Positions 1,592 through 25,374 of a stretch of 64,000 nucleotides of DNA are shown here, piece after piece. Each line of letters opens with the position of its first letter. Position 1 is the first letter of the stretch. The stretch covers positions 430,019 through 494,018 of the forward strand of contig CAYNTO010000001.1 in the NCBI GenBank assembly GCA_964400355.1. Reading direction: 5' to 3'. A program made the position numbers and the translations under genes. The DNA is from an uncultured Pseudobdellovibrionaceae bacterium (GTDB taxonomy: Bacteria; Bdellovibrionota; Bdellovibrionia; Bdellovibrionales; JAGQZY01). A model generated the notes under the pieces. It made no database searches. It was not told the DNA's origin and worked only from the letters and a program-made list of their open reading frames with translations.

Positions 1592-3106
1592 TCACTCGCA
1601 GAGGGGAATTCTGATTTCCATGCTGTTGAGTTTAAAATTGCGCAGCAGCGCCAGAGCATAGACCTCGGAACTTTGCTCGAGCTTTAGTTGAGAAACATCG
1701 CGGTTCCAATCATCGAGCGCCTCACAACTAAAATCCATATACGAGAAGAGCGATTTTCTGGATTTTTCGCATTTTTTAATGAGCTCAGAATACTTACTAA
1801 CCGCATCGACGGCTCCGGGAAACTGTTTATCACTAGTTAGGGCCACAATTTCATTGGAAGTTTCGAGAACTTTAAATTTAAGAACTTGTTTTTCGCTTTC
1901 GATCTTCGAGCTGTCGTGCTTCCATATTTTTAGGTGAAGAGCTGGTATGTAGAGTGTGTTGTCACCCGGCAGTTTTTTACGGTCGATACAGGTCACATTG
2001 TCGTAGAACATGAATTTCGCCATGGCCTTTTTATAGGTGTCCATTAACGGTAGCGAGAATATTGGCTCTTCGCCAGCCTGATAAATCAATTGAGAGATAT
2101 CAATAGCACTCTCCTCACCACTCACATAACTTTTGTGCGTGTCGGGAGTTTGAAACGCGGGATTCACAATTCTAAAATTATCACCATACTCGTTGCCGCG
2201 GTTAAAGTATGTGAGATTTTCAAGGGCATCCATAAATTGAGGTGTCGACTTAAACTCGCAGTCCGCATGCGGGGTCCGCAAGTACGGGATGCAGCTACCG
2301 TTGGTGCCGCCAGCAATATTGTCGGAGCTTCCAGAGGCGTAGCTGATAACACCTGTGAGTCGGTCCGCGGTATTGAATATTCCAGATCCAGAATTACCGT
2401 TGATAATTTTGTCTGCGCAGCCTTGTGCGGAGTAGAGTGAAGAGAAAGCACTGTAAAAGAATTCTTGCATTGAAGATTGGCGGTTGAGAGTGCAGGTGTT
2501 CTTGTGGATCACGCCGCTCACCTTAATGTAGTCGCCCGAACTATCGAGGGCGTAGCGCACCGGATAGGCGGTAAATTTTTCGCCGTGCTGAAGGCCCGCT
2601 TCTGTTTCGATAAGAGGTGCCTGGCGTGCAATGGATCCTGTAAAAGTCATCACCGACCAATCGGGTCGCATCACTTGATCGTCTTTGCTCACATCGTGAT
2701 CGGAAAAATCCACGATTTGATCACATTCCAAAGTTTGCGCCGGCAGAGACTGCGTTGCTGGAAACTTAAATTTGATACGGCCTTTGCAGCTTTTGCCCTT
2801 AGACACTAAATCAGAGACCAAGCAGTGCCTGTTTGCGAGAATTCGGTTTTGGCCGATGTAGGTGACCGAACACACATTGACATAGTAGCTATCCCATTTT
2901 TCCGTGTAGGTCGTCATTCCGCCAACATATTGTGGGCATTCTCCGGAACAGCTCACTCTGCTGGTCTCAAAGACTTTTACTGCGGTTGGACGATCTTCAA
3001 ACTTAAAGGTTTGCGTTTTATCATCACTACCGCCAGAGCACGCCGTGAGAACCAGTAAAAGACCGCAAGCGATGAGGATACGCGAAGCACGGAAATTGGT
3101 AAGCAT
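1592..3106 (-). CDS. trypsin-like (S1 family) serine protease lipoprotein with large C-terminal extension
   Basis: Lipoprotein signal LLLVLTACSGG. His-box-like ILANRHCL and Ser-box-like GNSGSGIF (compare GDSGGP). About 200 further residues have no recognisable family. Confidence 0.65.
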   Translation of the reverse strand: MLTNFRASRILIACGLLLVLTACSGGSDDKTQTFKFEDRPTAVKVFETSRVSCSGECPQYVGGMTTYTEKWDSYYVNVCSVTYIGQNRILANRHCLVSDLVSKGKSCKGRIKFKFPATQSLPAQTLECDQIVDFSDHDVSKDDQVMRPDWSVMTFTGSIARQAPLIETEAGLQHGEKFTAYPVRYALDSSGDYIKVSGVIHKNTCTLNRQSSMQEFFYSAFSSLYSAQGCADKIINGNSGSGIFNTADRLTGVISYASGSSDNIAGGTNGSCIPYLRTPHADCEFKSTPQFMDALENLTYFNRGNEYGDNFRIVNPAFQTPDTHKSYVSGEESAIDISQLIYQAGEEPIFSLPLMDTYKKAMAKFMFYDNVTCIDRKKLPGDNTLYIPALHLKIWKHDSSKIESEKQVLKFKVLETSNEIVALTSDKQFPGAVDAVSKYSELIKKCEKSRKSLFSYMDFSCEALDDWNRDVSQLKLEQSSEVYALALLRNFKLNSMEIRIPLCE

Positions 3107-3267
3107 GTGGAAAAACCCCTTTGCAGTTACAAAAGGTTAGAGCAAGGGCTATGCCGTTGCGCAGCGATTATAGGGATCAATAGCAGTAGGGTTCGACTAG
3201 GCGGTGCGGGGGATGTTCAAACCTTTGACGTCTCGATTCGAGACGCGGGAGGGCGGGTGCAAAAGAC

Positions 3268-3300
3268 ACAAAAAAACCCACTCGGGAAGGAGTGGGTTTG
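3268..3300 (-). terminator. rho-independent terminator downstream of 3332..3898
   Basis: On the minus strand, stem AAACCCACTC / GAGTGGGTTT with a 6-nt loop is followed by a T-run (the plus-strand A-run 3270..3276). Confidence 0.6.
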
Positions 3301-3331
3301 GACCTCTTCAAAGTTTAGGGAGAAGAAGGTT

Positions 3332-3898
3332 TTAGATTCTTTTTTTATTTGTAGTGGTACCGACGTTTTTCCAAGAGAAGCTCTTGATCATTTTGTTGCA
3401 TTCATTCAGAGATGTTTTGAATGAAGCGATGTGATCACGGCAGGTCATGAGCACGGCGCGATTGTCTTTCATAAAGATCACTTGGCGCAATTGGCGTTTT
3501 TTAGCCGGATTTACAAGGTCCACCACGTAGCCATCTTGGCCATTCATGGCGAATTTTTTAGAACCTTTTACGTCGAAACCAAATTTTGGATACTCTTTTG
3601 TCCAACGTTTTACGTAATCAGAAATTTCCATAGGCTTGCTGAGCTTGTCCACGCGCACCGTCAGAGTGGCGCGCATTTTATTGCGCACTTCTGGTGAACG
3701 GAACATGGTCGCGATGTAGCGCGTGTTCTTTGGTGGGCGCGACTGAATCCAATCCGACGATGCGGTTGCAATTTGAAAGCCGTGCGGTGATTGATACACG
3801 CCGAGCTTTGGTTTTGCTTTGCTGCCGGCACCCGGAATTGGGGCTGCGTTAGAGAGGTTGAAGGAAAGGATTGTGATTAAGAATAGGAGTGTTTTCAT
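3332..3898 (-). CDS. secreted hypothetical protein
   Basis: Track ORF 3332..4081 trimmed to the internal Met starting MKTLLFLITILSFNLSNAAP (signal peptide). No family recognised. Confidence 0.55.
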   Translation of the reverse strand: MKTLLFLITILSFNLSNAAPIPGAGSKAKPKLGVYQSPHGFQIATASSDWIQSRPPKNTRYIATMFRSPEVRNKMRATLTVRVDKLSKPMEISDYVKRWTKEYPKFGFDVKGSKKFAMNGQDGYVVDLVNPAKKRQLRQVIFMKDNRAVLMTCRDHIASFKTSLNECNKMIKSFSWKNVGTTTNKKRI

Positions 3899-4001
3899 AT
3901 TCAAAAGTCTAACAAGACGTTGGATTGCTTTGCAAGAGCGGCACTCGAAATCGTAACCAAAGAGCTCGACCTGTGTCGTGGTCTGCGAAAAGGGAGCGTC
4001 G

Positions 4002-7013: not shown

Positions 7014-8669
7014 TTGCAAAAATTTTGGGTAGTTCCGTTTATTCTTATATGCACTATACCATTGATGTTCCAAAATTGCGGAGCGCCCACGTCTTATCAT
7101 AAAACTTTGGGCATAACAAAAATGTGCGCACGCGACGAGGCGCCGAAGTACCGTCCGACACTTTTAACTAAGCTCGAAGTCGCTAACGTTGTAGCGGATC
7201 TATTCCCATCGGAATACAGCGCCGATAGTGCACTGAGAACAGCAATTGCGAATCTTCCTGAACTCAACGCCGAACAGATCGTCAATGGGTCTTCATACAA
7301 AGAGAACAATTCGGGGATCATGCCGAGCGATGCGTACCTCTCGGGGCTACTCGATATCGCGGATCTTCTCTATAGTCGCTATGCTCAAAGTTCCGCTTAC
7401 ACCCAAAACTGCGGCGGTTCGGACGATGCCAAGTGCTATAATTATGTGTACCAGGATGTGATCGAAAGTTTGTGGCGGCGACCGCTCACTGAATTAGAGG
7501 CGGCAGAATTTCAGAAGATCATGAAGCAAGGCGGGACGATCGGCTCGCGGGTCAATACAGTTTTTACCGTTGCACTCACTTCGCCGCAGTTTTATTACAA
7601 AAATTATCTGCCTAAAGATGGCCACCAGATGCTAGCCCACTATGAGAACTACTTTTTAGCGTCGCGCTTGTCCTTTTTTCTCTACAATTCTGTTCCTGAT
7701 GAGGAGCTGTACCGAGCTGCGGGATCGGGTGCACTTTCCAACACATCAAATCTGGTCGCTCACGTTGATCGACTCCTGCAAAATCCCGTCTACATGTCGC
7801 GATTTATTCGCTACACGATTGGAGAATGGATTCAACTCGATCAGGATTTGTTGAGCACACACGTGGTCACAAACCAAGAGGGCGTATCTCTGGGAGTTTC
7901 TGCGATGGCGGAGCAACAGTACTTGCAGCTCGAAGCGCTATTTAAGGAAAATGCCAACCTCTCCCAGTTCCTTTACGGCTCGAATGTGTTTATGAATAAG
8001 GCCACGGCCAAGTTCTTGGGGCTTAACCCCGATGAACACAGCGACAACTTTTCGCGAGTGCCCGCGTCCGCGGCTAAAAACCTTTATGCCAGCTACTTTG
8101 CAAGCCCCCACTTTGCGAAAAACACGGTGACATCGTCGACACCCACAAAAACACGAGTGACAGCACGGGGAATTCCAATGGTTAAAGACTTTTTATGTGG
8201 GAACATTCCGGTCAATGAGGTTTCTCCAGAGCTTCAGAATTCGGTCTTGGGCCCCAACGCCGCTTCGCTCACTCAGATTCAGGTGGCGCGGATTCGGAGT
8301 TCGGCGACCGCTTGCAGTTCGTGTCACAAAGACGTGGACCGCGTGGGCGCTGGCATGGAGTTCGTCGATGCGTTTGGTAAACCGCGTTTCGCATATCCCG
8401 ACAGCACTCCTATTCAGATTCACATGACACTTTCCGAGCAAAAACCTGCTCCTATTACCAGCTTTGATCAGTTCCTGCAGGCGCTTTCCGGCGATGAACG
8501 TTTGCATGCATGCTTTGTAAAAAAAATTGCTACAAAAGTAGCGGCTATGCACATTCAATCGGAACAACCATGTGTTACAAACGCACTCAAAGTTCACCGC
8601 GGTCAGGGCTTGCGCGATTACATCAAAACAATTGTGGGATCTAAGTTTTTCGACACGGTTGCAAAGTAA
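7014..8669 (+). CDS. DUF1592/DUF1588-type haem-motif envelope protein (lipoprotein)
   Basis: TTG start with lipobox PLMFQNCG. CxxCH motif in SSATACSSCHKDVDRVGAGMEFVDAFG. Size (551 aa) and pairing with a downstream Tat-signal DUF1552-like gene fit the usual arrangement of this family pair. Family call is from memory of its signatures. Confidence 0.6.
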   Translation: MQKFWVVPFILICTIPLMFQNCGAPTSYHKTLGITKMCARDEAPKYRPTLLTKLEVANVVADLFPSEYSADSALRTAIANLPELNAEQIVNGSSYKENNSGIMPSDAYLSGLLDIADLLYSRYAQSSAYTQNCGGSDDAKCYNYVYQDVIESLWRRPLTELEAAEFQKIMKQGGTIGSRVNTVFTVALTSPQFYYKNYLPKDGHQMLAHYENYFLASRLSFFLYNSVPDEELYRAAGSGALSNTSNLVAHVDRLLQNPVYMSRFIRYTIGEWIQLDQDLLSTHVVTNQEGVSLGVSAMAEQQYLQLEALFKENANLSQFLYGSNVFMNKATAKFLGLNPDEHSDNFSRVPASAAKNLYASYFASPHFAKNTVTSSTPTKTRVTARGIPMVKDFLCGNIPVNEVSPELQNSVLGPNAASLTQIQVARIRSSATACSSCHKDVDRVGAGMEFVDAFGKPRFAYPDSTPIQIHMTLSEQKPAPITSFDQFLQALSGDERLHACFVKKIATKVAAMHIQSEQPCVTNALKVHRGQGLRDYIKTIVGSKFFDTVAK

Positions 8670-8678
8670 GAGGAAACG

Positions 8679-9968
8679 ATGACACGACGACAGTTTTTAG
8701 ATCAGTTTCAGAAGATGTGTGTGGCCTATGGGATATCGAGTATCCTGAGCGAACACGCCTTTGCGCAAAGTGCGACACCCACACGTATGGTGAATTTTGT
8801 GATCAAATACACCGGCGGAACGACAACAACTGACGACGTGGGCGGATGGACGACAAGCGAAACTCTCTCACCCCTCGCCAGTTATGCCACACGACTTGTT
8901 GTTCCGCTGGGACTCAATTCCCAATTCCATGCGCCGATGAACTCCCATGCTGCACCTCAAGTGAGTGCGCTTTCCGGTTCAATGACGGGATTCGTAATGT
9001 ACGAGACCGAATACCCCACTGGCAATCTAAAAAACTTTACAGAAGGCGGTGGAAAATCCATCGACGTGCTTATCGGTGAAAAACTCAAATCCCAGCATCA
9101 GTCAGCCATTCCTTATTTGCTAATGACCAACAATACGCTGGATTATCTGGAGTGCACACATCGCACCTCTTCCTGGGGGGCGAACGGCCAAGTGCTCTCC
9201 TCTATTTCAACCATCAGTGACTTGACCGCAGAAATCAACAGCCGCCGTTCCACCTGCGAACGCTTTTCCAAAGATATTTACACGCGCAGGCTCAAGGCCA
9301 TGGAGTATGTGAAATCTCTAAACAAGATCTATTCCGACAGCTACGTGATCAACCAGGAACGGTTTGAGGACTTACAAGCCAAGCTGCAAAGTAATGCAAC
9401 CAAATACAACAAAGACATCACGAACATAGACAATCGTGGCGGTGTGCAGGTGAGCTGTGAAGACATAGCCGTTGTTTCAGTGGTAGAAAATACTCACAGT
9501 GATCAAGCCAATTTTAATACCAAGATGGATAGAATGTACGATCTCGGAATCATGGCCTTTCAGCAAAATATCACCCGTGTTCTTACTTACAATCTCTACA
9601 TGCAAGACACTCACGACACCTCTCACTATATCAGCGACAATTCCATTGCGAGGTACTATGCGGCCTCGCGCTTTATGCAGGCCTCTGTCGCCCGGTTTCT
9701 TGCCAAACTTTCAAGTAGCGGACTTTTTGATGAGACATTGATCTTCTGCAATGCTGGATCCTGCGCGAGCAACGAGGTTCACAACTACGAAAACTTGTCG
9801 ACGTACATTATCAACGGTGGCAAATCGGGTACGGCGGGAAGTCCATCGGCGAAACTCCCTGTGGGAGCCGTGCATTTGGATATATTGAACAAATTCGGAA
9901 TTGCCTATTCTACATACGGTGGCAGTGACCATATTTATGGTTCCGCCCGCAAAGGAAACTTTTTCTAA
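8679..9968 (+). CDS. DUF1552-type protein with twin-arginine signal
   Basis: MTRRQFLDQF... Tat-like N-terminus, 429 aa, 10 nt after the preceding gene. Family assignment rests on architecture and pairing. Confidence 0.6.
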   Translation: MTRRQFLDQFQKMCVAYGISSILSEHAFAQSATPTRMVNFVIKYTGGTTTTDDVGGWTTSETLSPLASYATRLVVPLGLNSQFHAPMNSHAAPQVSALSGSMTGFVMYETEYPTGNLKNFTEGGGKSIDVLIGEKLKSQHQSAIPYLLMTNNTLDYLECTHRTSSWGANGQVLSSISTISDLTAEINSRRSTCERFSKDIYTRRLKAMEYVKSLNKIYSDSYVINQERFEDLQAKLQSNATKYNKDITNIDNRGGVQVSCEDIAVVSVVENTHSDQANFNTKMDRMYDLGIMAFQQNITRVLTYNLYMQDTHDTSHYISDNSIARYYAASRFMQASVARFLAKLSSSGLFDETLIFCNAGSCASNEVHNYENLSTYIINGGKSGTAGSPSAKLPVGAVHLDILNKFGIAYSTYGGSDHIYGSARKGNFF

Positions 9969-14473: not shown

Positions 14474-14965
14474 ATGAAGTTTGCCATGGATGTTACGCCA
14501 GGAAATAACAATGTGATCGTGGAAATAGCCGGCTATTTTGATGAGCACGCCGTACTATCGATAGATTTTCTGAACAACCTCACCGCTCCAGCGGACATTC
14601 ACGTGAGCTTCGAGCACCTTGTCTACATCAATTCGGTAGGGGTGCGCACGTGGATTCGATGGCTACAGACCGTAGAGAAAGTGGGACATGTTACACTTCA
14701 CCGATGTCCGGTGATCTTCGTGAGATCGCTCAATACTGTCTACGGAATGGTCAACACGCGCATGAAGGTGCAAAGCTTTTACGTTCCGTTTTACGATCCC
14801 GATTCGCAACAACGCCGCAATCTACTCATGGTGCACGGTACCGATTTTTTTGACGACGGCTCGTTGGTTATACCTTCGGTTAAAAATGACAACGATGTGG
14901 ATTTGGAATTAGATGTGCCCGAAACATATTTCACATTTTTGAACCATCAAAAGATAAAAAAATAA
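14474..14965 (+). CDS. STAS-like (SiaC / anti-sigma-antagonist-like) protein, paralogue 1
   Basis: 163 aa, paralogous to 25569..26039 (roughly one third identical by eye). STAS-type switch motif LVYINSVGVRTWIRWL (compare DSSG of SpoIIAA) plus a conserved C-terminal extension of about 70 aa (FYVPFYDP...VKNDNDVDLELDV..YFTFL). Confidence 0.6.
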   Translation: MKFAMDVTPGNNNVIVEIAGYFDEHAVLSIDFLNNLTAPADIHVSFEHLVYINSVGVRTWIRWLQTVEKVGHVTLHRCPVIFVRSLNTVYGMVNTRMKVQSFYVPFYDPDSQQRRNLLMVHGTDFFDDGSLVIPSVKNDNDVDLELDVPETYFTFLNHQKIKK

Positions 14966-15041: not shown

Positions 15042-15596
15042 ATGCGTAGAGCATTACGGCAAACAGTGCCGCTTTTATTGGTAGTCCCTTTTCTGATTTC
15101 TTGCGGTAAGGTCGCGGAAAATTGGGCGGGCATTCGCGAAGGGATCATTGATCTTTCCGATATTTTTACGGTGGTTTCTAAAACTACCGCTACGGCCGAT
15201 GGCTTTGATGAGTCGGAGCTTGTCATTCGAGTGCACGATAAAAACGGAACACCTAAAGAAAACAGAACGGTGTCTTTTTCAGCTGCGGTTGAGGCTGGTG
15301 TCAATCACATTTCATGTACCCCTTCGGATGCGCAAGGCCTGATCGTTTGTAAGGTCCGCGCCCATCGCGACGGAGTTAAAAATTTAAAAATGGCCGGGCG
15401 CGAACAGACAGTGCAATTGGAATTCACCCGCTCCTTTGACCAAGCTGCGCTGCTAGTGGATGAGGCGGGTGGCAGCCATATGACCACTGCAGCCGGTGGA
15501 GATCTGGTCACTGCAACTGCCGGTAAAAAATGGAGTCCGCCTTTAGTCACCCAGTCCGAAGCCACGTTGAGGGCGGACGTAAGTGTTGTATTTTAG
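15042..15596 (+). CDS. lipoprotein with bacterial Ig-like (Big_1/invasin-like) domain
   Basis: Lipobox PFLISCG. VVSKTTATADGFDESELVIRVHDKNGTPKENRTVSFS resembles invasin/intimin Ig-like repeats. Confidence 0.6.
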   Translation: MRRALRQTVPLLLVVPFLISCGKVAENWAGIREGIIDLSDIFTVVSKTTATADGFDESELVIRVHDKNGTPKENRTVSFSAAVEAGVNHISCTPSDAQGLIVCKVRAHRDGVKNLKMAGREQTVQLEFTRSFDQAALLVDEAGGSHMTTAAGGDLVTATAGKKWSPPLVTQSEATLRADVSVVF

Positions 15597-15712: not shown

Positions 15713-18700
15713 ATGCTGAAATTTTTGAGGAATCTCCCATTCATCGCCGCGAGCTTGCTCTTTGTGGTCGCATCTCAGCGGGTTCTCGCTCAGGTGCCGG
15801 AGACCTTCGTTTATCAAGGTCAAATTCTTAAAAACGGCACCACTCCCCTCGAAGCCGATCCGGTTCTGTTCCGCGTTCAAATTCTGTCTCAGACCAATGA
15901 TTGCATTCTGTTCGAGGAACAGCACTCGATCAATATGCTGGGCTCCTCGGGCGTTTTCAGTTTGAACGTCGGCGCTGGCATGCGTTCGGGCACGGACTAC
16001 GAGGATACCTCGAGTCTTACGAATGTATTTAGAAACGGCCAGTTGTTCACGGTCACTCATTGCACATCGGGCACAGCGTACAATGCGTTAGCAAATCATA
16101 CACGTAAGATGCGGATCAGCTACAACGATGGCAGCGGTTACGTAACTATCGCACAAGATTTTCACATGCAAGCCACACCTTTTGCATGGTACGCCAACAG
16201 TCTTCAGGGATTAACGCCGACAAATTTTGTACAGACCAATGCGGGACAAAATGTAACGCAGGCCAATCTCGAAACTCTCCTGGGCGGCACGAACTACACG
16301 AATCTTTTAGCTCTCGCTAGTGGTTCGAGTCCGTCATATGTGCAAGTGGGTACCAACGGTGCCAGTCTCCCCAGTTTTTCTACCGATCCTGTTTCTCCAA
16401 CGGAAGGCATGATTTGGTTCAACCAAACTACCAATAAAATCACCTTTCATGATGGAACTGGAATTCAAGAAATGAACACGAGCACTATCGATACCACCAA
16501 GCTTCCTCTTGCTGGCGGTACACTTACGGGCCCACTGGAACTGGGCGGAGCGCTCGATGCGGCGTCATTTGATCTTTTGAATGTGGGGCATATCACTATT
16601 GCCAATCAACACACGTTGCGTTTGGGTCGTTATGACAATCCCCAACAGACAGCGCTCTTACTCACTTTGGGCGTGGGGCATGCGGGTACAACTTGGTACA
16701 ATACGGATACCAACAAGCTTATGTATTGGACAGGAACAGCGTCACGCGAAGTGATTGATAACCTCACTCCGGGCGGTGATCATGGTGTGCTTACTGGTTT
16801 GGGCGACGACGATCATACACAATATGCCGCTCTTGCCGGTCGTGCTTCGGGTCAAAACCTGCGCGGTGGCACTGTGCCGAGTGGGAATCTAACGTTGGAA
16901 TCGACCACCGATGCGACAAAAGGTTTTGTTATTCTGCAGCCCAATGGTGGCAATGTAGGTATTGGAACGACCAATCCACTCTCTCTGTTGCATGTGAGTG
17001 GAACTGTTGGCTCCAGCGGTAACGATTCTGGATTCGAACTCCGTGATCGAAACAATATAAACTCTACCACACTTATGTATATGAATGCAGGCGCCTTTCA
17101 TTTCTACGAAGGCGGGGTGCATGGGGTAACCCTGGATGCATCCAACTCTCGACTAGGAATCGGTTTGAACAACTTTGTTAGCCATCTGAATCATGCCATT
17201 ATCTTGGGAGCTGGGTCGGACAACATCATCACCGCAGAACCGAACTGGACGGATCCTGGAAGAGATATTTCTTTAATAGCCGGTAGCCCTAATTCTGGTC
17301 ATAACGATCTTGATGGCGGAAAGTTGATCTTAAGCTCTGGCGGATCCACAGGCGTGGGAGAGTCCCAGATAGAATTTAAAACAGCCACGGCCGGCGTTTC
17401 CGGCTCGGCGCCAAATGCTCCTACCCTCAAGATGGTTGTAACCAGTGATGGCAGGGTGGGGATTGGTTCTGCGACTCCGCAATCGCTTCTCGATGTGGCC
17501 GGTATCATCCGCGCGGAGCAGATCTGCGATGAGACCGGATCTAACTGCAAAGATATATCCACAGGCTGGAGTACCGGTAACGTATCGACATCGCGTGCGA
17601 TCAACACCAATACAGGATCAGCGCTAACGGGCGGCGGTGATTTGTCCGCAGATCGCAATCTGGCGGTGAATGTGGACAACACAGGTATTGAGATTGATTC
17701 CAATGCATTGAGATTGAAAGATTTGGGAGTAAGCACAGGGAAGCTCGCCAACACTTCCGTAACGGAAGCGAAGCTTGCGAACAATGCGGTAACCAGCGCG
17801 AAGATCGTTGACGGCACTATTGTAAGTGCAGATGTGGACAACGTAAGTATCGGCAAGATCTCCAATGCTCCGGCTGAGTACTTTACCTACATGCCTGCAG
17901 GCAGTGAATGTACAGATGGATATGTGCTCAAGTGGACTTCCAGTGATCGTTGGGAATGTTCAACGGACCTGGTAGGTTCCACGGATCACGGTGCACTTAC
18001 GGGCCTCGGCGATGACGATCACACACAATATGCACTTCTCGCAGGTCGCGGAGCAGGACAAAACTTGCGCGGTGGCACTGCCGCCAGTGCGAATCTCACT
18101 CTCGAATCCACATCGGATGTCACAAAAGGCTACGTGCTTTTACAACCTAGTGGTGGGAGCGTCGGTATTGGTACTACAGCTCCGCATGCTTCCGCTGTTA
18201 TGCAAATGGCTTCTACGACCAAAGGTTTTTTGCCGCCAAGAATGACGAGAGCGCAACGCAACGCCATCGGCACTCCGACTCAGGGACTAATGGTCTTCAA
18301 TACTGACGATAGCACCTTGGATTACTATAGTGGTTCAGCTTGGTTGAGTCTAAATGGATCCCCCAAATACATGAAGCTTGGAATGTCGGGCGTTCAAACG
18401 GTTGATTTACATTCAGTCGTAGCGTTTGATTCAATAAGGTCCAATGGTGGCATGACGACATCCGCAAACGGAATCCAACTCAAGGCCGGCGTTACCTACA
18501 GACTGGAAGCGGCGGTAAATTCCTTTTCCTCCGATTCAAGCAATTTTCTTGGCTATCAGTTGCACGACGGGACTTCTTATTTTGGACAGGCAGCTTATAC
18601 TTCTGAACCAGAAAATGCCAATTATGGATTTAAAGCTCATCTGTTGGAGTTCTACACTCCGATCGCGGATGTCACAGTGACAGTAAGAATCATTGACGAC

Positions 18701-20458
18701 TCTATCGGGACGGGCCAGATTCACAGCGCGTGGAATACTTATTTTGTTGCTCAAGAAGTGGTGCCGTCTGGCCCCGGTGGTGGTGGTGGCAATGACAACA
18801 TGGGTAACCATGCCGCTAGTCAAAATCTCGCGTTGTCAGGATTCTGGCTTTCAAACGATGGCAATGCCGAAGGAATTAGCATAAGTAATTCTGGCAATGT
18901 GGGTATCGGATCCGATTCTCCAAACGCTCTCCTCGATGTTGCCGGTATTGTTCGCGCGCAACAGATTTGCGATGAAGCCGGTGCCAACTGTAAAGACATC
19001 TCCACAGGCTGGGGTGGTGGTGGAGACATGGATGGTGTGACCACGCATGCGACCACGTCTGGTCTATTAGGTGGCGCCACCAGTGGCACTGCCGACTTGA
19101 GCGTAGACACCGACAACTCCACGATTGAAATCAGCGGCTCCAATAAAGTGCGAATTAAAGATTTAGGTGTCACCTCCGCAAAAATCGCGGACAACGCCAT
19201 CACCTCTGCAAAAATAAATGATGGCGCGATCATGAACGCGGATATCAACGCTTCGGCGGCCATAGCCTGGAGCAAGATCGATAAAACCGGCGCTGCTGCG
19301 GGCGACGTAGGAGCTGTACCAAGTTCCAGAACTATAGCGACATCAGGAACATCGGGTTTGAGCGGTGGGGGAGACCTCACGGCGAATCGTTCACTTTCGG
19401 TGAACGTCGATGACACCACTGTAGAGCTCAACGCAAATGCACTAAGAGTGAAAGACAGCGGCATCACCAGTGCAAAGATCGCAAATGGCACTATCGTGAA
19501 TGCCGACATCGGCGGCGTGAATATTAGCAAGATCAACAGTGCCGCAACCGAGTACTTTACCTATATGCCAAACGGTGCCGAGTGTACCGATGGCTATGTG
19601 CTGAAGTGGACATCGAGCAATCGCTGGGAGTGTGCGACCGACATCGGTGTGACCGATCACGGCACCCTCGGGGGTCTTGGTGACGACGACCACACACAGT
19701 ACGCGCTGCTCGCTGGCCGCACTACAGGCCAAAATCTTCGCGGTGGCACGGCCGCCAATGCAAATCTCACATTAGAATCCACTTCGGACTCCACTAAAGG
19801 ATTTGTTCTCTTGCAGCCCAATGGTGGATATGTGGGCATTGGTGTTGCGACGCCCACATCGACGCTCGATGTGGCAGGTACGATCAATGCGGCCGGAAAT
19901 TTAACTACCAATTCTCTGCTCGCCATCGACAACGTGGGCGCATTGCCCAACGGAATGCTGTTTTCGTTTCGTTCCCACGGCGTGGAGGCCGGTTTCATCA
20001 TGACCTATACCGCCGATGAGTTGAACGGTGATATGCAGTTCTCAACACAGACTGCCGGCACCACGACTGAGAAGATGCGCATTCTCGCCAATGGCAATGT
20101 GGGTATCGGAACAGGGGTTCCTTTGACAAAATTGGATGTGGACGGCGCGATCAAGTCGGAAGCGGTATCCAATGCCGGGACTACGATCGACTTTCTAACG
20201 GGCAACATTCAGTACACCAGTTCTTCATGCACAGGATTTACGTTGAACAATTTGAAGAGTGGAGCAGTTTACACGCTGATCGTTCAAGGGACGGCGGGCG
20301 GCACGTGCTCGTTCACACCTTTTTCGGGAACTGGCTCTGGATCACTTACTCTCAAAACGGGTTCGGTAGGACTCATACAAACTGCAAGCACCCATATGGT
20401 GTTCTCCTTCATGGTGGCGGGTAGTTACGTTTACGTGACGTCGGTGGACGGGTACTAG
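15713..20458 (+). CDS. giant secreted modular fibre/adhesin (phage-tail-fibre-like, MAT-fibre-like)
   Basis: 1581 aa with signal peptide MLKFLRNLPFIAASLLFVVASQRVLAQ. Three DHG.L.GLGDDDHTQY...NLTLEST.D.TKG.V.LQP.GG.VGIG modules. Two Cys-neck motifs ICDE.G.NCKDISTGW. SAKI.DG repeat tracts. KGFLPPRMT..QR.AI..P..GLMVFNTDD knob motif. Confidence 0.85.
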   Translation: MLKFLRNLPFIAASLLFVVASQRVLAQVPETFVYQGQILKNGTTPLEADPVLFRVQILSQTNDCILFEEQHSINMLGSSGVFSLNVGAGMRSGTDYEDTSSLTNVFRNGQLFTVTHCTSGTAYNALANHTRKMRISYNDGSGYVTIAQDFHMQATPFAWYANSLQGLTPTNFVQTNAGQNVTQANLETLLGGTNYTNLLALASGSSPSYVQVGTNGASLPSFSTDPVSPTEGMIWFNQTTNKITFHDGTGIQEMNTSTIDTTKLPLAGGTLTGPLELGGALDAASFDLLNVGHITIANQHTLRLGRYDNPQQTALLLTLGVGHAGTTWYNTDTNKLMYWTGTASREVIDNLTPGGDHGVLTGLGDDDHTQYAALAGRASGQNLRGGTVPSGNLTLESTTDATKGFVILQPNGGNVGIGTTNPLSLLHVSGTVGSSGNDSGFELRDRNNINSTTLMYMNAGAFHFYEGGVHGVTLDASNSRLGIGLNNFVSHLNHAIILGAGSDNIITAEPNWTDPGRDISLIAGSPNSGHNDLDGGKLILSSGGSTGVGESQIEFKTATAGVSGSAPNAPTLKMVVTSDGRVGIGSATPQSLLDVAGIIRAEQICDETGSNCKDISTGWSTGNVSTSRAINTNTGSALTGGGDLSADRNLAVNVDNTGIEIDSNALRLKDLGVSTGKLANTSVTEAKLANNAVTSAKIVDGTIVSADVDNVSIGKISNAPAEYFTYMPAGSECTDGYVLKWTSSDRWECSTDLVGSTDHGALTGLGDDDHTQYALLAGRGAGQNLRGGTAASANLTLESTSDVTKGYVLLQPSGGSVGIGTTAPHASAVMQMASTTKGFLPPRMTRAQRNAIGTPTQGLMVFNTDDSTLDYYSGSAWLSLNGSPKYMKLGMSGVQTVDLHSVVAFDSIRSNGGMTTSANGIQLKAGVTYRLEAAVNSFSSDSSNFLGYQLHDGTSYFGQAAYTSEPENANYGFKAHLLEFYTPIADVTVTVRIIDDSIGTGQIHSAWNTYFVAQEVVPSGPGGGGGNDNMGNHAASQNLALSGFWLSNDGNAEGISISNSGNVGIGSDSPNALLDVAGIVRAQQICDEAGANCKDISTGWGGGGDMDGVTTHATTSGLLGGATSGTADLSVDTDNSTIEISGSNKVRIKDLGVTSAKIADNAITSAKINDGAIMNADINASAAIAWSKIDKTGAAAGDVGAVPSSRTIATSGTSGLSGGGDLTANRSLSVNVDDTTVELNANALRVKDSGITSAKIANGTIVNADIGGVNISKINSAATEYFTYMPNGAECTDGYVLKWTSSNRWECATDIGVTDHGTLGGLGDDDHTQYALLAGRTTGQNLRGGTAANANLTLESTSDSTKGFVLLQPNGGYVGIGVATPTSTLDVAGTINAAGNLTTNSLLAIDNVGALPNGMLFSFRSHGVEAGFIMTYTADELNGDMQFSTQTAGTTTEKMRILANGNVGIGTGVPLTKLDVDGAIKSEAVSNAGTTIDFLTGNIQYTSSSCTGFTLNNLKSGAVYTLIVQGTAGGTCSFTPFSGTGSGSLTLKTGSVGLIQTASTHMVFSFMVAGSYVYVTSVDGY

Positions 20459-20469
20459 GAGATGCTCCG

Positions 20470-21228
20470 ATGAAACGAAGGGATTTCATAATTGGCGCCA
20501 CGGCAGGTTTGCTTTACCCGCAGCTTTCAAAAGCGCAAACGCTACCATTCGCAAATTGGAATAAGAACGTTGCTTCGACGGCCACTATCCAGCGGACAGA
20601 CGGGGACACAGATACCGGCTCTACAAATTACTCCTTCTCCTCAAAAAGTATTGGAAGCGCCTCTTCCGATCGCTTGATCGTCGTCGTGGCATCTCTGAAA
20701 AACGACAACAACAGCACAACGCCCAATCCAACGTGCACAATCGCAGGCGGCGCCGCCACGCGAGTCGTTTTGGCCCATCAGGTTCCCAGTTCCTGGTGCG
20801 CTACATTTGCTATATTTTCTCGTGCCGTGCCCACGGGTACCACGGCGACCATTGCGATTAACAACTCTTCGCTCAATCAGACGTGCTGTATCGATGTGTA
20901 TGCTCTCAAAAATCTACGCTCGCATGCTCCCATCGTTGTGCGATCCACGGTAAAGGAAACCGGCACCAATACCACCTCCGACAACTTGACCTTTGGGACC
21001 CGTTACGGAGGCGTTGGCGTTGTTGGTATCTCCGATCCTTCGGCCACCAATCGCACCTATACTTGGACAAATGCAACCAAGGATTCCGAAGAATTTTTAG
21101 TGAGTGCGCAGAACTCCAGCGCGGCTCGCTTTACTGTCGCCTCGGGAGCGGCCGCATTCACCACCGTCACTGTTTCGATCAATATTAGCACGGAGACTTA
21201 TGCTTTTGGCGGCGCTTTCTGGCGCTAA
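20470..21228 (+). CDS. Tat-signal hypothetical protein coupled to the fibre gene
   Basis: MKRRDFIIGATAGLLYPQLSKAQ. AGGAG overlaps the fibre stop codon, and the ATG lies 11 nt after that stop. Ser/Thr/Asn-rich body with no recognised family. Confidence 0.6.
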   Translation: MKRRDFIIGATAGLLYPQLSKAQTLPFANWNKNVASTATIQRTDGDTDTGSTNYSFSSKSIGSASSDRLIVVVASLKNDNNSTTPNPTCTIAGGAATRVVLAHQVPSSWCATFAIFSRAVPTGTTATIAINNSSLNQTCCIDVYALKNLRSHAPIVVRSTVKETGTNTTSDNLTFGTRYGGVGVVGISDPSATNRTYTWTNATKDSEEFLVSAQNSSAARFTVASGAAAFTTVTVSINISTETYAFGGAFWR

Positions 21229-21322: not shown

Positions 21323-23125
21323 TTAGTTTGCAGTAGCGCGGCGTTTGATCACCACCACCGACACGTCGTCGGGGAGCGGAATGTCGCCCCTATAGGTATT
21401 GAACTCTTCAAGAGTGGCGGCCGAAACTTCTTTTGCAGATTTTAAAAATGTGATTTTTTTCGCGAGTTTTTTTCCAAAGCGCAGCTCGCTCAGAACTTGG
21501 CCATCGGGGCGTTCGATGGAAAAGAGGCCGTCGGTGTATATCACCAAAGTGTCTTGCGGACTCAGCGTGAACGACTGTTCGCGAAGGGTGCTGGGGATAT
21601 TATCGCCAATGCGGGCACTCGCCATCATGTGAACGTTGTCGACTTCGTAGCCGCCGTAATCTTTGTAGCGCATGAGATAGGGAGGTTCGTGACCGGCGTT
21701 CACGAAAGTTACATCTCCGGTTTTTGAATGGACGCGGTAGAGCTGGCCCGTCATCAACACCTCTTGGCGAGAGCAGCTGTAAACCGCATGATCCCAAATT
21801 CGCATCATTTCCAGTAATGGAATGTTTTCGTTTTCAATTCGAGAAAAAATTGAACGGGCGGCGGCGGTGATAAGTGCAGCTGGTGTTCCGTGGCCGGTGG
21901 CATCTGCAACGGCTACGTAAATGTACTCACCCTGCTGAAAGTAATACCACCAGTCACCACCACACTCGCTCGACGTCATTACGGTTCCGAAGACTTCGAT
22001 GGAATTGAAAGCATGGGATGATTGTTCCGGCAAAAGTTTTTCCTGTACATATGCCGCGGTCTTTAATTCCGCTTCCATGCGCGCTTTTTCGCGGGTTTCC
22101 AGGAGCAAACGTTGAATTTCGCGGATCATGCGACCAAAAGCGCCGGCCAATATACCGATTTCATCTTGAGATTGAATTTTGGGCCGATCGTCGAAAGTGC
22201 CTTCGGCGATTTCTTCGGCCCAGGCGGTGATGATTTTTAATCCGCTCGTCAGGAGCCTTGCCAAGGTGAGTGCGATTATCGTGAGAGCGAAAAAAGAAAG
22301 GACTAAGAAAATCAGAGAACGCGTGAACAACACATTGAGCGCTCCTAATGCCTCCGCCTCCGGAGTGAGAGACACCAATCGCAGTTTGTACGCCTTCATC
22401 TCTGTTTGGCTCATCAGAAAACGATGATCGTTATCGGTCACCAACTTGGTTTGCTCCACGCCTTCGGAGGATCGCGTTTTCGCCACATTCAAGAAGGTTT
22501 GTGGCTGAAGACCGCGCATATCAGAAACCGCCAAGATCGACATGTCCGTGTTCGACGTGTCTGAGAGAAGAGCGATAGAGTTCATCATGTCGGGTGTAGG
22601 GAGTAAATCCTTCGTCAACACCGCCAGACGAATTTGATATGTCCCGCGCGGGCCTTGATCGTACTTGAGACTTAATAGGAAGGTGTCTTTATTGATAAGG
22701 CGCAGATCCGCTTCGCCTACTCCTTTTGCGAATGTTTCCGCCACTGGCGGTAGTAATGACGGAACCTTCTCCAAACGAAATACGCTCTGTTTTGCCGTTT
22801 GATTCCAAAGTTCGATGGCCATCAAGTTTTTCTCGTCTTTAAAAATCTGTTGTCCCGCGGAATTCGGACGCCCCAAGTTGGGATCATAGGTGGCCACAAT
22901 GCTGCGTGCGGCGAGTAAAGACATTGCCAATTTACTCTCCACTTCGCTCTTAACCGATTGCAGGCGGGAATTTTGCGCGTCGAAGACGTAAGAGATTTTG
23001 TCGTTTTCGAAAACATTCTTGGCGATCAGAACGTACGATAAAATAAATACAAGACCGGTAGCGATCAACGCAAGAGTGAGTTTCCATTTGATGGAGGCGC
23101 TCTTCAGCAGATTTAATAATGCCAT
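21323..23125 (-). CDS. membrane sensor PP2C (SpoIIE/RsbU/SiaA-like) phosphatase with HAMP domain
   Basis: TM1, a periplasmic region of about 270 aa, TM2, HAMP (AEEIAEGTFDDRPKIQSQDEIGILAGAFGRMIREIQ), then PP2C motifs GGDWWYYF, ADATGHGTPAAL and YTDGLF. Start is ATG 23125 (MALLNLLKSASIKWKL), overlapping the upstream gene by 13 nt. Confidence 0.85.
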   Translation of the reverse strand: MALLNLLKSASIKWKLTLALIATGLVFILSYVLIAKNVFENDKISYVFDAQNSRLQSVKSEVESKLAMSLLAARSIVATYDPNLGRPNSAGQQIFKDEKNLMAIELWNQTAKQSVFRLEKVPSLLPPVAETFAKGVGEADLRLINKDTFLLSLKYDQGPRGTYQIRLAVLTKDLLPTPDMMNSIALLSDTSNTDMSILAVSDMRGLQPQTFLNVAKTRSSEGVEQTKLVTDNDHRFLMSQTEMKAYKLRLVSLTPEAEALGALNVLFTRSLIFLVLSFFALTIIALTLARLLTSGLKIITAWAEEIAEGTFDDRPKIQSQDEIGILAGAFGRMIREIQRLLLETREKARMEAELKTAAYVQEKLLPEQSSHAFNSIEVFGTVMTSSECGGDWWYYFQQGEYIYVAVADATGHGTPAALITAAARSIFSRIENENIPLLEMMRIWDHAVYSCSRQEVLMTGQLYRVHSKTGDVTFVNAGHEPPYLMRYKDYGGYEVDNVHMMASARIGDNIPSTLREQSFTLSPQDTLVIYTDGLFSIERPDGQVLSELRFGKKLAKKITFLKSAKEVSAATLEEFNTYRGDIPLPDDVSVVVIKRRATAN

Positions 23126-25374
23126 CGAATCACCATGAATCCTTCGCCCAGTCCCTCGCGATATGGCAGGCCTAACGGCGACGCCGTCTTTACACTTCCT
23201 GCTTCGAATAAGTGCAATCGATATCCACCACCAACAGCCCACTTGCGGTCGAAATAATAGTTCAGATTCCCAGTAAGCTCGTATTTTTGGCTGGAGTCAA
23301 ATCCATATCCTACAAGCGCTTCACCCGATAGATCCCAATAACGGTAGAACGGAAACAAAACGCCCAATCCCACTTTTGCCAAATTATATCCCGGTGAGAA
23401 CAATTGCGTGCCGCTGTTTTTGTAGTATTCGTAGCCGGCGATGAACGAAAGCTCAGAGCGAATGAGCGAATGCAGTGGATTGCTAGGGCCATACCACCGG
23501 TAGCGGTAGCGAGCTTCCACATGCAGCGGGGAATTGGACCCACTGGCCGCATCTTCGGAGCCGGCCACTTTGGCTTTCGCGAGGCCTTCAAGGCCATGGT
23601 GCTCTTTCCATTGAAGCCAGCGCAAACCTAATGTGTAGATACTCGGCGACGTCGTGCCCTGGCTGGCTTGATCCGCGGAAAACATGGAGAACTGGCCGGT
23701 CTCAACCGAAAAGCGGGAACGCAAATAATTGCGATTGTATTCTGCAGGTTTGCTGGAAAATGTCTGGCTCAACACGGGCACACTGGAAACATTGCGGGCG
23801 TGCACCGGGGCTGTCGTCTCGGGCGTGTAAACTTCGATTATAGCCCTGCTGACTTTCTTGGCTTTGCGGCCAAACTGATCCTGCGCAGTAAAAGCCACCT
23901 GGTAAATGCCGGCTTTATTCCAATTGAGCGAGTACGGAGAATTTTGAATCGTTTCTTCTTTGAGAACTGTTTCGGCGGAGTCAGTAATGCGGACGTCGTA
24001 CTTCCACAAGCGGTGAGAATTGTCCCAGTGTAGAGATACTGGAGTGTTTTCAGGAATTCGAATTTTAGATTTCGCAAGCTGTGGAGCCTCGGGAAAAGGC
24101 GGTCGCACCACTTTCACGGTGCGTGTGTCGGACACATGCGACAGCTGTAAGCGTTCATTCACTCCGCGAACGCGCAAGTACAATGTTTGTGGTTGTGTGG
24201 CGTTGAGCGAAATCTCCGCCGTCGATTGCCAGCTCACCTTTGTCGATGCGCGGGTGAACTCGGGAGATGTGGAAAGTTCCAGTAAATAATTCTTCCAAAT
24301 TCCGCCGACCGTTCCGTGAATTTGTACATCCTGGCCGAGCAGATACACCGTTTTTGCGGCGACAGTGATTTGTGGTGGGAGATCATCAAGAGGCAGCGAC
24401 TCTACGGTGAACTGATGGGGGTTGGACCACGTCTTTCCATCTACAGACAAGCGATAAAAATTCCCTCCGCGCACTGTCTGCGCAAAGAAGGCCTGCTTTT
24501 TATTTTGCGACTCCGAAAACGTCGATACAATCGCTGTGAATTCGCGGTCCGTCGACAACTCGCCGTAAACAGTGGAGGCCAAGAATTTATTCTCCCACTT
24601 TACAGGACCGGCGAAGGCCACCAGCTGCTTCGGCATGGCTCGCTGTACGAGTGCGCCATTGCTCTTTTCAAAAAAATCGTAGAGTTCATCGGTACGCCGG
24701 TAAATCGGTGCGCCGGCAATTGCCACCACGGCTTCTTGATCGACGACGGGCATATTCATCACCGGACGAGTGAGCGTATTGAGGGCCAACGATTTGTTTT
24801 TCTCAAGTGTCACGCTTCTGTTATTTGAGCGCACCGACGCATTTCCTTTGACGAGACGGATTTCTGGAGACTTGTTTTTGGAGAACACCACTTCTACTTG
24901 AGCATCGCTACCGTCGAACTCGAGTATCTCACCCTGAGCGGCGATGCGCATTTTACCCTGGATGTTAAGTTTGAAATTACCAAAAACCATGTTCGGAATT
25001 TGCACGCTGTTTTCACTGATAAACTTAATCAGCGAGTTCTGCTCGAGCGCAATCTCTTTGCCATTCGCCACTTTAATTTTCAATTTAGAACGCTTACCCG
25101 TAAACACGCTGTCGCCAGAATGGATGTCGGAACTCAAATCGGCTTTATTCCAAGTGAAGGAGGAGCTGAGACGACGGCGCACATCGTTTTCAGAATGAAC
25201 GATTTCGCCGATAATGCGACCCGAGTTTTGTGATGGTGAATTGTGGAAAAAGACCGAGAAGAGATCATCAGAAAACAAAAGTGCGCTACACACCAAAATT
25301 CCCAAAAGGCTTGTGATCAGAATCGCGCGATCTCTGCGATCGCTGTCTGCATTTTTAGACTGTGATGGTTTCAA
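23113..25374 (-). CDS. FecR-domain protein with Ig/FN3-like middle and C-terminal beta-barrel-like domain
   Basis: TTG start. N-terminal hydrophobic anchor AILITSLLGILVCSALLF. FecR-like GDSVFTGKRSKLKIKVANGKEIALEQNSLIKF. The last 220 aa or so are aromatic/Gly-rich alternating strands ending GFMVIRWHY. Confidence 0.6.
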   Translation of the reverse strand: MKPSQSKNADSDRRDRAILITSLLGILVCSALLFSDDLFSVFFHNSPSQNSGRIIGEIVHSENDVRRRLSSSFTWNKADLSSDIHSGDSVFTGKRSKLKIKVANGKEIALEQNSLIKFISENSVQIPNMVFGNFKLNIQGKMRIAAQGEILEFDGSDAQVEVVFSKNKSPEIRLVKGNASVRSNNRSVTLEKNKSLALNTLTRPVMNMPVVDQEAVVAIAGAPIYRRTDELYDFFEKSNGALVQRAMPKQLVAFAGPVKWENKFLASTVYGELSTDREFTAIVSTFSESQNKKQAFFAQTVRGGNFYRLSVDGKTWSNPHQFTVESLPLDDLPPQITVAAKTVYLLGQDVQIHGTVGGIWKNYLLELSTSPEFTRASTKVSWQSTAEISLNATQPQTLYLRVRGVNERLQLSHVSDTRTVKVVRPPFPEAPQLAKSKIRIPENTPVSLHWDNSHRLWKYDVRITDSAETVLKEETIQNSPYSLNWNKAGIYQVAFTAQDQFGRKAKKVSRAIIEVYTPETTAPVHARNVSSVPVLSQTFSSKPAEYNRNYLRSRFSVETGQFSMFSADQASQGTTSPSIYTLGLRWLQWKEHHGLEGLAKAKVAGSEDAASGSNSPLHVEARYRYRWYGPSNPLHSLIRSELSFIAGYEYYKNSGTQLFSPGYNLAKVGLGVLFPFYRYWDLSGEALVGYGFDSSQKYELTGNLNYYFDRKWAVGGGYRLHLFEAGSVKTASPLGLPYREGLGEGFMVIRWHY

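Follow-up and report, generated by a model that had tools for sequence, protein, structure and literature searches.

An NS74-type mosaic adhesive trimer fibre with a structurally unsolved tip family and an internal globular domain

We analysed a 64-kb window (the whole stretch of 64,000 nucleotides (nt) from contig CAYNTO010000001.1) and focus on its sole gene for a mosaic adhesive trimer (MAT), an open reading frame (ORF) at 15713..20458 on the forward strand. This ORF starts with ATG and encodes, over its whole length, a fibre protein of 1581 amino acids (aa), and sequence comparison supports its membership of the MAT family of Bdellovibrio (Caulton et al. 2024, PMC10769870) as a member of the 'NS74' type. 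In our reading, which we hold to be likely, the protein is an NS74 MAT of a Bdellovibrio-like predator and would form a trimeric surface fibre, with a portable tip that most likely contacts an epitope on the prey surface. What the comparisons below show is family membership, NS74 type, the module map, the mosaicism of the cassettes and, for the tip, its fold class and its distribution.

The way in which such a fibre would work can be drawn from the characterised members of the family, where MATs are surface-displayed and the Bd2439 tip binds prey glycans, N-acetylglucosamine (GlcNAc) and Proteus lipopolysaccharide (LPS) (PMC10769870). By analogy with these, the protein would be exported by a Sec signal peptide, held at the cell surface by its N-terminal MAT domain, and assembled into a long homotrimeric fibre, as crystallised MATs do. 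The stalk would consist of duplicated cassettes, namely three 'unit A + capping loop' modules, two disulphide necks, SAK repeats, and EYF...RWEC knots, and would carry two globular elements, an internal knob (aa ~885–1020) and a 98-aa disulphide-bonded β-sandwich at the C-terminus. The latter, displayed as the tip, would point to the prey and bind a surface epitope.

Membership of the MAT family and the duplicated stalk

The hallmark of MAT proteins is a conserved β-rich N-terminal domain of ~130 aa directly after the signal peptide (PMC10769870). In the fibre, the NCBIfam model NF053851 (Bdello_MAT_N) matches aa 18–176 across profile positions 4–161 of 162, with a score of 133.6 bits, where the curated cutoff is 60 (E 5.2e-39), and the N-terminus is 68–80% identical to those of the ten closest Bdellovibrionales fibres. 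A Pfam scan of the fibre gave no significant match and Peptidase_S74 (PF13884) gave none at E ≤ 1; since it has no S74 peptidase domain, the fibre is an NS74 MAT. The precomputed Pfam annotation lists PF26696.1 for the fibre and for every relative with the motif KGFLPPRMT..GL.VYNTD, a family that is not in the Pfam copy scanned here.

Among PDB sequences searched with phmmer, only MAT crystal constructs were matched, those of Bd1334 (8oml, E 1.5e-9; 8on4) and Bd2133 (8ond), and the segments that align to them (aa 355–463 and 1386–1518) are β-helix and capping-loop stalk. The published consensus for the MAT capping loop is V-G-G/N-π-x-x-P-x-x-x-L (PMC10769870), and the fibre holds six capping-loop motifs of the form VG[IVL]G...P...[LVMA], at aa 415, 582, 817, 1063, 1374 and 1463. 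The initial annotation, made without database searches, had guessed at a Bdellovibrio MAT fibre, and both the N-terminal model and the homology to crystallised MAT stalks bear this out.

B. bacteriovorus HD100 has eight NS74 MATs of 626–1959 aa, none of which is 1581 aa long. Two of the crystallised MATs, Bd2133 (8ond/8ok3) and Bd1334 (8oml/8on4), share with the fibre an N-terminal MAT domain after a signal peptide (putative in the fibre), VGIG..P..L capping loops, the lack of S74, a directly alignable stalk, and a small β-rich tip at the end. Unlike them, the fibre is ~450–550 aa longer and contains duplicated connector cassettes and an internal globular domain.

The exact 1581-aa protein is found in a single database record. 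A search of 5.8 billion clusters returned no full-length orthologue, and the best relatives are ~50% identical over ~20% of the length. These are nearly all proteins from metagenome-assembled genomes (MAGs) of Bdellovibrionales or Bdellovibrionaceae, the exception among the higher-ranking named ones being a single Nitrosomonas-labelled MAG, and they suggest that the source organism is predatory. Fibre proteins in records of Flavobacteriales, Hymenobacter and Patescibacteria also share the stalk modules, and MAT-like proteins are known in non-predators (PMC10769870), as would be expected if the protein were a generic fibre-like, phage-derived adhesin of a non-predatory bacterium. We consider this very improbable, as the Bdellovibrio-specific MAT_N model is matched far above its cutoff, the higher-ranking named relatives are, but for the Nitrosomonas-labelled MAG, Bdellovibrionales or Bdellovibrionaceae, and all 30 tip-bearing genomes reported below are of Bdellovibrionota type.

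The stalk is strongly repetitive. Its ~75-aa unit (unit A) starts at aa 356, 758 and 1315 (nt 16778, 17984 and 19655), the Cys-necks lie at aa 591–620 and 1072–1101, and the SAK...EYFTYMP...RWEC tracts at aa 664–751 and 1241–1310. Every repeat motif that the initial annotation had placed in the 1581-aa ORF was found in frame and in position. Similarity between copies was measured by BLAST of protein fragments against the whole protein: aa 336–441, 738–839 and 1315–1396 are mutually similar (E 2e-30 to 7e-32, with up to 80–86% identity over the best-matching 60-aa fragment), aa 576–660 match aa 1057–1139 (up to 70% identity, E 2e-21), aa 687–800 match aa 1245–1357 (up to 84% identity, E 5e-34), and aa 553–600 are similar to aa 1441–1481. 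Aligned end to end, the copies are 52–74% identical in protein and 64–72% identical in DNA, and the longest exact DNA run that they have in common is ≤16 nt. Because the DNA copies are this diverged, the repeats are old intragenic duplications and an assembly artefact is excluded, as had been proposed from the letters alone.

The 12 cysteines sort into six pairs, each inside one module, which fits an exported protein. The N-terminus (MLKFLRNLPFIAASLLFVVASQRVLA↓QV) resembles, by eye, a Sec signal peptide, with a basic n-region, a hydrophobic core, and a VLA↓Q cleavage site. A promoter and terminator scan at the fibre gene gave nothing exceeding shuffled expectation. Each copy of unit A begins with the invariant DHG..GLGDDDHTQYA (16778–16840, 17984–18046 and 19655–19717). 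HxH motifs bind metal ions in some phage fibres; by analogy, and as speculation, the Asp and His residues of unit A could line the three-fold axis of a trimer and bind a metal ion.

The C-terminal tip and its exchange between fibres

The last ~190 aa had been left unassigned in the initial annotation. This stands for the final 98 aa (1484–1581, nt 20162–20455) and falls for the ~95 aa that precede them, as aa 1386–1483 are β-helix stalk and capping loop, aligned to the Bd1334 and Bd2133 constructs (8oml, at the E-value given above, 8ond and 8on4). The 98-aa tip has no Pfam, NCBIfam or PHROG match. It is borne by 22 of the first 120 relatives, each time at the extreme C-terminus, and a profile of those 22 sequences, searched exhaustively against 1.84 billion representative proteins, gave 1,969 matches at 1e-3, of which 1,370 reach 1e-10 and 270 reach 1e-30. 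Against PDB sequences the profile returned only sub-threshold Ig/FN3 noise (E 0.3–2), and with no Ig/FN3 fold match either, an Ig or FN3 domain is not supported.

With the family alignment, AlphaFold2 (AF2) modelled the tip as a nine-strand all-β domain, a β-sandwich, with a predicted local distance difference test (pLDDT) score of 92.5 and a predicted template modelling (pTM) score of 0.84. The solved MAT tips comprise the β-sandwiches of Bd2133 and Bd1334, the TNF-like tips of Bd2439 and Bd2734, plus Bd2740's C-type lectin (PMC10769870). A Foldseek search of the PDB with the model returned nothing at E ≤ 1e-3, the best fold match being an Acinetobacter phage tailspike with a template modelling (TM) score of 0.48, and solved MAT tips were not among the matches at E ≤ 10. 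The tip therefore matches no solved MAT tip in sequence or fold, the β-sandwiches of Bd2133 and Bd1334 included, and it stays unassigned, as in the initial annotation.

A different picture emerged from the predicted viral structures of BFVD, among which 85 matched the tip at E ≤ 1e-3 (TM 0.6–0.73, probability 1.00, 14–24% identity). Almost without exception they are the C-termini of tail-fibre, collagen-repeat or Mtd-N proteins from uncultured Caudovirales, and tail-fibre C-termini such as those of A0A6J5RPZ0, A0A6J5PLU7 and A0A6J7X800 have the same predicted β-sandwich, although these phage domains are themselves predictions and uncharacterised. No sequence relative of the tip was confirmed in IMG/VR by tblastn. 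As modelled, the tip would thus have a phage-fibre-like fold that lacks an experimental representative and, at recognisable sequence similarity, it appears to be a cellular family associated with Bdellovibrionota.

To describe the distribution of the tip, one genome per prokaryotic species was scanned with eight tip sequences, in a set that does not include the source genome of the fibre. The scan found 30 tip-bearing loci, all in Bdellovibrionota-type genomes (Pseudobdellovibrionaceae, Bacteriovoracaceae, Bdellovibrio sp. HCB-162 and B. bacteriovorus Bd16), two of the MAGs carrying only the label 'Pseudomonadota'. The tip-bearing ORFs at these loci range from ~520 to >2,780 aa. Among the proteins in hand, those with both MAT_N and the tip span 376–3,247 aa, and short tip-bearing fibres of ~500–730 aa are common in Bdellovibrio species. 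Six tip-bearing proteins score above the MAT_N cutoff: P0037, P0004 and P0268 (our handles for relatives), and three whose cultured source strains are named, B. bacteriovorus AZI86_01045 (727 aa), one of B. reynosensis (504 aa), and one of Bdellovibrio sp. HCB-162 (1,104 aa). That genuine MATs of cultured Bdellovibrio bear the tip on fibres from about 500 to more than 2,700 aa long shows that the cassette is swapped.

In HD100 and 109J, a search seeded with short tip-bearing fibres gave only S74-type proteins without the tip. One short HD100 MAT, Bd2872, was needed for predation in a transposon sequencing (Tn-seq) screen (PMC6561027). At 626 aa, with a 'novel beta-rich domain' and not crystallised, Bd2872 is like the fibre an NS74 MAT with an uncharacterised small β-rich tip. 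Identity of the two tips is weakly disfavoured by the S74-type matches in HD100/109J, Bd2872 and Bd0726 not having been compared directly.

The two ends of the fibre have different nearest relatives. By its N-terminus the fibre is closest to P0023 (57% identity over aa 26–349 and 80% within MAT_N), which has an S74 domain at its end. By its tip it is closest to L001 (70%), a fibre of 657 aa, and to P0037 (63%), whose N-termini are only ~28–30% identical to that of the fibre. Similarity to L001 and P0037 starts abruptly at the last capping loop, at ~aa 1461 (nt 20093), which marks a cassette junction. Because the nearest relatives of base and tip differ in this way, the sequences show a mosaic design in which a conserved base is combined with an exchangeable C-terminal tip.

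Conservation was assessed over 190 full-length tip copies, a sample biased to top-scoring members. Cys1506 and Cys1532 are each 95% conserved, N1498, G1517, Y1520, F1534, G1570, Y1574 and W1577 are 95–100% conserved, and 187 of the copies end ≤8 residues from the C-terminus. The capping-loop residues just upstream of the tip are kept in 84–93% of copies, from which we take the domain to be the end of fibres only and no generic sorting signal. A C-terminal secretion or sorting domain, such as the C-terminal domain of type IX secretion substrates (T9SS CTD), was rejected on this ground and for want of an NCBIfam or Pfam match. The tip of the fibre forms a subclade with those of P0037 and L001, marked by the substitutions D1516S, G1518A, P1550G, T1556Q, Y1564F and W1577S/A at sites that are 82–95% conserved in the remaining family. 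In a few relatives the domain is internal or doubled (P0121, 325–423 and 452–551; P0228, 1331–1430 and 1747–1850; P0275, 750–855 of 1150). Judged from these sequences, the tip cassette can apparently become internal too, resembling the C1q-like knobs described next.

The internal domain and the role of the tip

The fibre contains a globular all-β domain mid-fibre that the initial annotation did not list, ~135 aa long (aa ~885–1020), and we regard this internal domain as real. It sits between unit A copy 2 and Cys-neck 2, after the motif KGFLPPRMT..QRNAI..GL.VFNTD and before a poly-Gly linker. The same order of unit A, PRMT motif, knob, Gly linker, neck, EYF knot and unit A recurs in P0003 and, twice, in P0012. 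P0161 shares the terminal tip of the fibre and combines it with MAT_N and an internal knob, and in P0016 the knob is terminal rather than internal. The slot-equivalent knobs of these relatives, including those of P0012, P0003 and P0161, are C1q/TNF-like domains: they match Pfam C1q in three of five cases and BclA_C in two of five, with a match to the PRD1 P5 knob at E 4e-4.

The knob of the fibre itself is an orphan by sequence. It has no Pfam match, a profile built without it does not recover it, hhalign against the C1q-like domains of relatives gave a probability of 0.2%, and phmmer found nothing in the PDB. Sequence homology to those C1q-like domains was accordingly rejected: a pairwise E-value of 1e-24 came from the flanking motifs, and the hidden Markov model (HMM), hhalign and phmmer comparisons were negative.

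One AF2 model of the knob reached a pLDDT of 72 and a pTM of 0.70, the other four models falling below 50. This model matches TNF/C1q folds 36 times at E ≤ 1e-3. The tip of Bd2734 (8okw, E 1.4e-5) is among its matches, as are two TNF-like lectins, PLTL and BC2L-C, and knobs of phages. The multiple sequence alignment behind it holds five sequences, the knob's own copy and four C1q-like sequences, and may have driven the fold; a TNF/C1q-like fold is therefore a tentative assignment. In Bd2734 and Bd2439 (8okw and 8onf) the TNF/C1q-like domain is the terminal tip, in contrast to the fibre, where the tentatively similar knob is internal and is followed by the Gly-rich linker and ~545 aa more.

Several observations weigh against the view that the fibre belongs to a predator and binds prey through its tip. 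In the sample biased to top-scoring members, the loops of the tip are no more variable than its strands and the family is uniformly conserved, a pattern that would fit a structural, folding or registration role, or a conserved ligand class, at least as well as a receptor binder under diversification. The TNF-like call for the knob comes from one moderately confident model, and the C1q-like sequences in its alignment are not detectably homologous to the knob. The Bdellovibrionales origin, and hence predation, is read from relatives only.

In the main rival explanation, the 98-aa C-terminal domain serves chiefly as a nucleus for trimerisation or folding, a registration domain in place of the S74 intramolecular chaperone, and does not set specificity; prey would then be bound by the knob or by the faces of the β-helix. 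Many phage fibres begin folding at the C-terminus. Such a nucleus would account for the strong and uniform conservation, with seven residues at 95–100% and loops like strands, and for the nearly constant C-terminal position, and the presence of an extra globular domain mid-fibre would suit it as well. We nevertheless judge it unlikely, because every NS74 MAT that has been crystallised has its C-terminal domain as adhesive tip, with the ligands of Bd2439 as the known case (PMC10769870), and because six residues that are strongly conserved elsewhere in the family, W1577 among them, are replaced in the subclade, in what looks like a specificity switch. The two roles can also coexist.

The preferred reading remains that prey ligands would be bound by the tip, as expected by analogy with the family, and possibly by the knob too. 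A further proposal, possible although doubtful, is that the MAT fibres of this clade diversify at both the internal knob slot and the terminal tip, which would make the fibre a two-headed, bivalent adhesin. If so, the knob slot would exchange lectin-type knobs, with relatives holding C1q/TNF-like domains and the fibre an orphan domain.

Module map, neighbouring genes and significance

Table 1. Modules of the fibre, from the N-terminus to the C-terminus, with positions in the window.
Module	Position (nt)	Strand	Residues and remarks
Putative signal peptide	15713..15790	+	aa 1–26, MLKFLRNLPFIAASLLFVVASQRVLA↓Q; read from sequence
MAT N-terminal β-rich domain, presumed anchor to predator surface	15764..16240	+	aa 18–176; Cys64/Cys117; NF053851
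Proximal stalk	16241..16717	+	aa 177–335; 38–46% identity with other MATs; PHROG 16122 virion structural protein, aa 224–285
Unit A copy 1, DHG..GLGDDDHTQYA...LQPNGGNVGIG, with capping loop (aa 415–426)	16718..17035	+	aa 336–441; self-similarity E ~1e-30
β-Helix-like stalk segment	17036..17437	+	aa 442–575; aa 355–463 align to Bd2133 β-helix (8ond)
Capping loop and Cys-neck 1	17438..17572	+	aa 576–620; Cys605/Cys612
SAK-type repeats ending in EYFTYMP...ECTDGYVLKWTS..RWEC knot	17573..17983	+	aa 621–757; Cys733/Cys749; PHROG 28766 tail fibre, aa 621–706
Unit A copy 2	17984..18229	+	aa 758–839
KGFLPPRMT..QRNAI..GLMVFNTD motif, ahead of internal knob	18230..18364	+	aa 840–884; common to P0012, P0003 and many relatives
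Internal globular all-β domain, orphan by sequence	18365..18772	+	aa ~885–1020; tentatively TNF/C1q-like jelly roll
Gly-rich linker PSGPGGGGGNDNMGNH	18773..18820	+	aa 1021–1036; conserved after knobs of P0012 and P0003
Capping loop and Cys-neck 2	18821..19015	+	aa 1037–1101; Cys1086/Cys1093
Two SAK-type repeat tracts and second EYFTYMP...RWEC knot	19016..19654	+	aa 1102–1314; Cys1291/Cys1307; PHROG 2012 minor tail protein, aa 1123–1193
Unit A copy 3	19655..19900	+	aa 1315–1396
Last β-helix segment and final capping loop	19901..20161	+	aa 1397–1483; aligns to 8oml, 8on4, 8ond; PHROG 9942 tail fibre
Tip domain, predicted 98-aa β-sandwich	20162..20455	+	aa 1484–1581; Cys1506/Cys1532; AF2 model

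The module map is shown in Table 1. As PHROG tail-fibre families match segments of the stalk and the tip fold is like that of phage fibre C-termini, we also weighed whether the gene could code for a structural tail fibre belonging to a prophage, a tailocin or a contractile injection system. The fibre gene lies among chromosomal genes of a housekeeping and signalling character, including alaS, a hybrid histidine kinase, a HAMP–SpoIIE phosphatase, and a DUF1592/DUF1552 pair. None of the 10 flanking ORFs matched a phage structural PHROG family, the only PHROG matches in the neighbourhood being two families of unknown function on the HAMP–SpoIIE phosphatase. With an apparent Sec signal peptide and a cellular MAT_N domain on the protein, and no sequence relatives of the tip in IMG/VR, we rejected a prophage origin and give the phage-type explanation as a whole next to no weight.

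Directly upstream of the fibre gene lies a 184-aa lipoprotein-like ORF (15042–15596, +) with an LISC lipobox, a Big_1 Ig-like domain at the Pfam threshold (35.1 against 34.9 bits), and a weaker invasin D3 match. Downstream, 12 nt past the fibre stop, is a 252-aa ORF (20470–21228, +) whose N-terminus (MKRRDFIIGATAGLL) is twin-arginine-like and which matches no family in Pfam, NCBIfam or PHROG. We considered this ORF as a conserved partner or chaperone of the fibre and rejected it, since tblastn gave no match beside any of the 30 tip-bearing loci; it is probably no dedicated partner.

The fibre gene is also flanked by components of the partner-switching type, the HAMP–SpoIIE (PP2C) phosphatase (21323–23242, −) and a weak STAS/anti-sigma-antagonist-like ORF (14474–14965, +). 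In a Bdellovibrionales MAG (L013), a 44%-identical phosphatase (2063–3907) and a 659-aa MAT that bears the same tip lie ~2.4 kb apart, which hints that a linkage between phosphatase and MAT may recur. A 753-aa ORF (23113–25374, −) without a Pfam, NCBIfam or PHROG match overlaps the annotated phosphatase start by ~130 nt, so that the start codon assigned to one or other of these ORFs is probably wrong. Further upstream, a DUF1592/DUF1588/DUF1595 (PSD4/PSCyt3/PSD5) gene (7014–8669, +) adjoins a DUF1552 (HXXSHH) gene (8679–9968, +). DUF1592 and DUF1552 form a conserved pair of unknown function that is better known in Planctomycetes.

MAT fibres are the current best candidates for broad prey recognition by Bdellovibrio-like predators. 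Six MAT tips have structures, one has a known ligand, and further tip types were expected by the original MAT paper (PMC10769870). Nothing in our analysis overturns this existing knowledge. What is new is an abundant, structurally unsolved tip family that is also present in cultured strains, together with evidence for an internal knob slot. The tip family, with its 1,969 representative clusters, is absent from Pfam and the PDB and, within our sample, is confined to Bdellovibrionota fibres. Since it is abundant, unsolved, and present in the cultured and tractable strains B. reynosensis, Bdellovibrio sp. HCB-162, and B. bacteriovorus AZI86 and Bd16, the tip is a practical target for structure determination, ligand work, and prey-range engineering by tip swapping. 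The internal knob slot, if real, would give the mosaic model of MAT fibres a second layer. Should the two-headed proposal hold, the fibre would read two prey epitopes along its length, and Bdellovibrionota would have in its terminal domain a major, as yet unrecognised, module for recognising prey.

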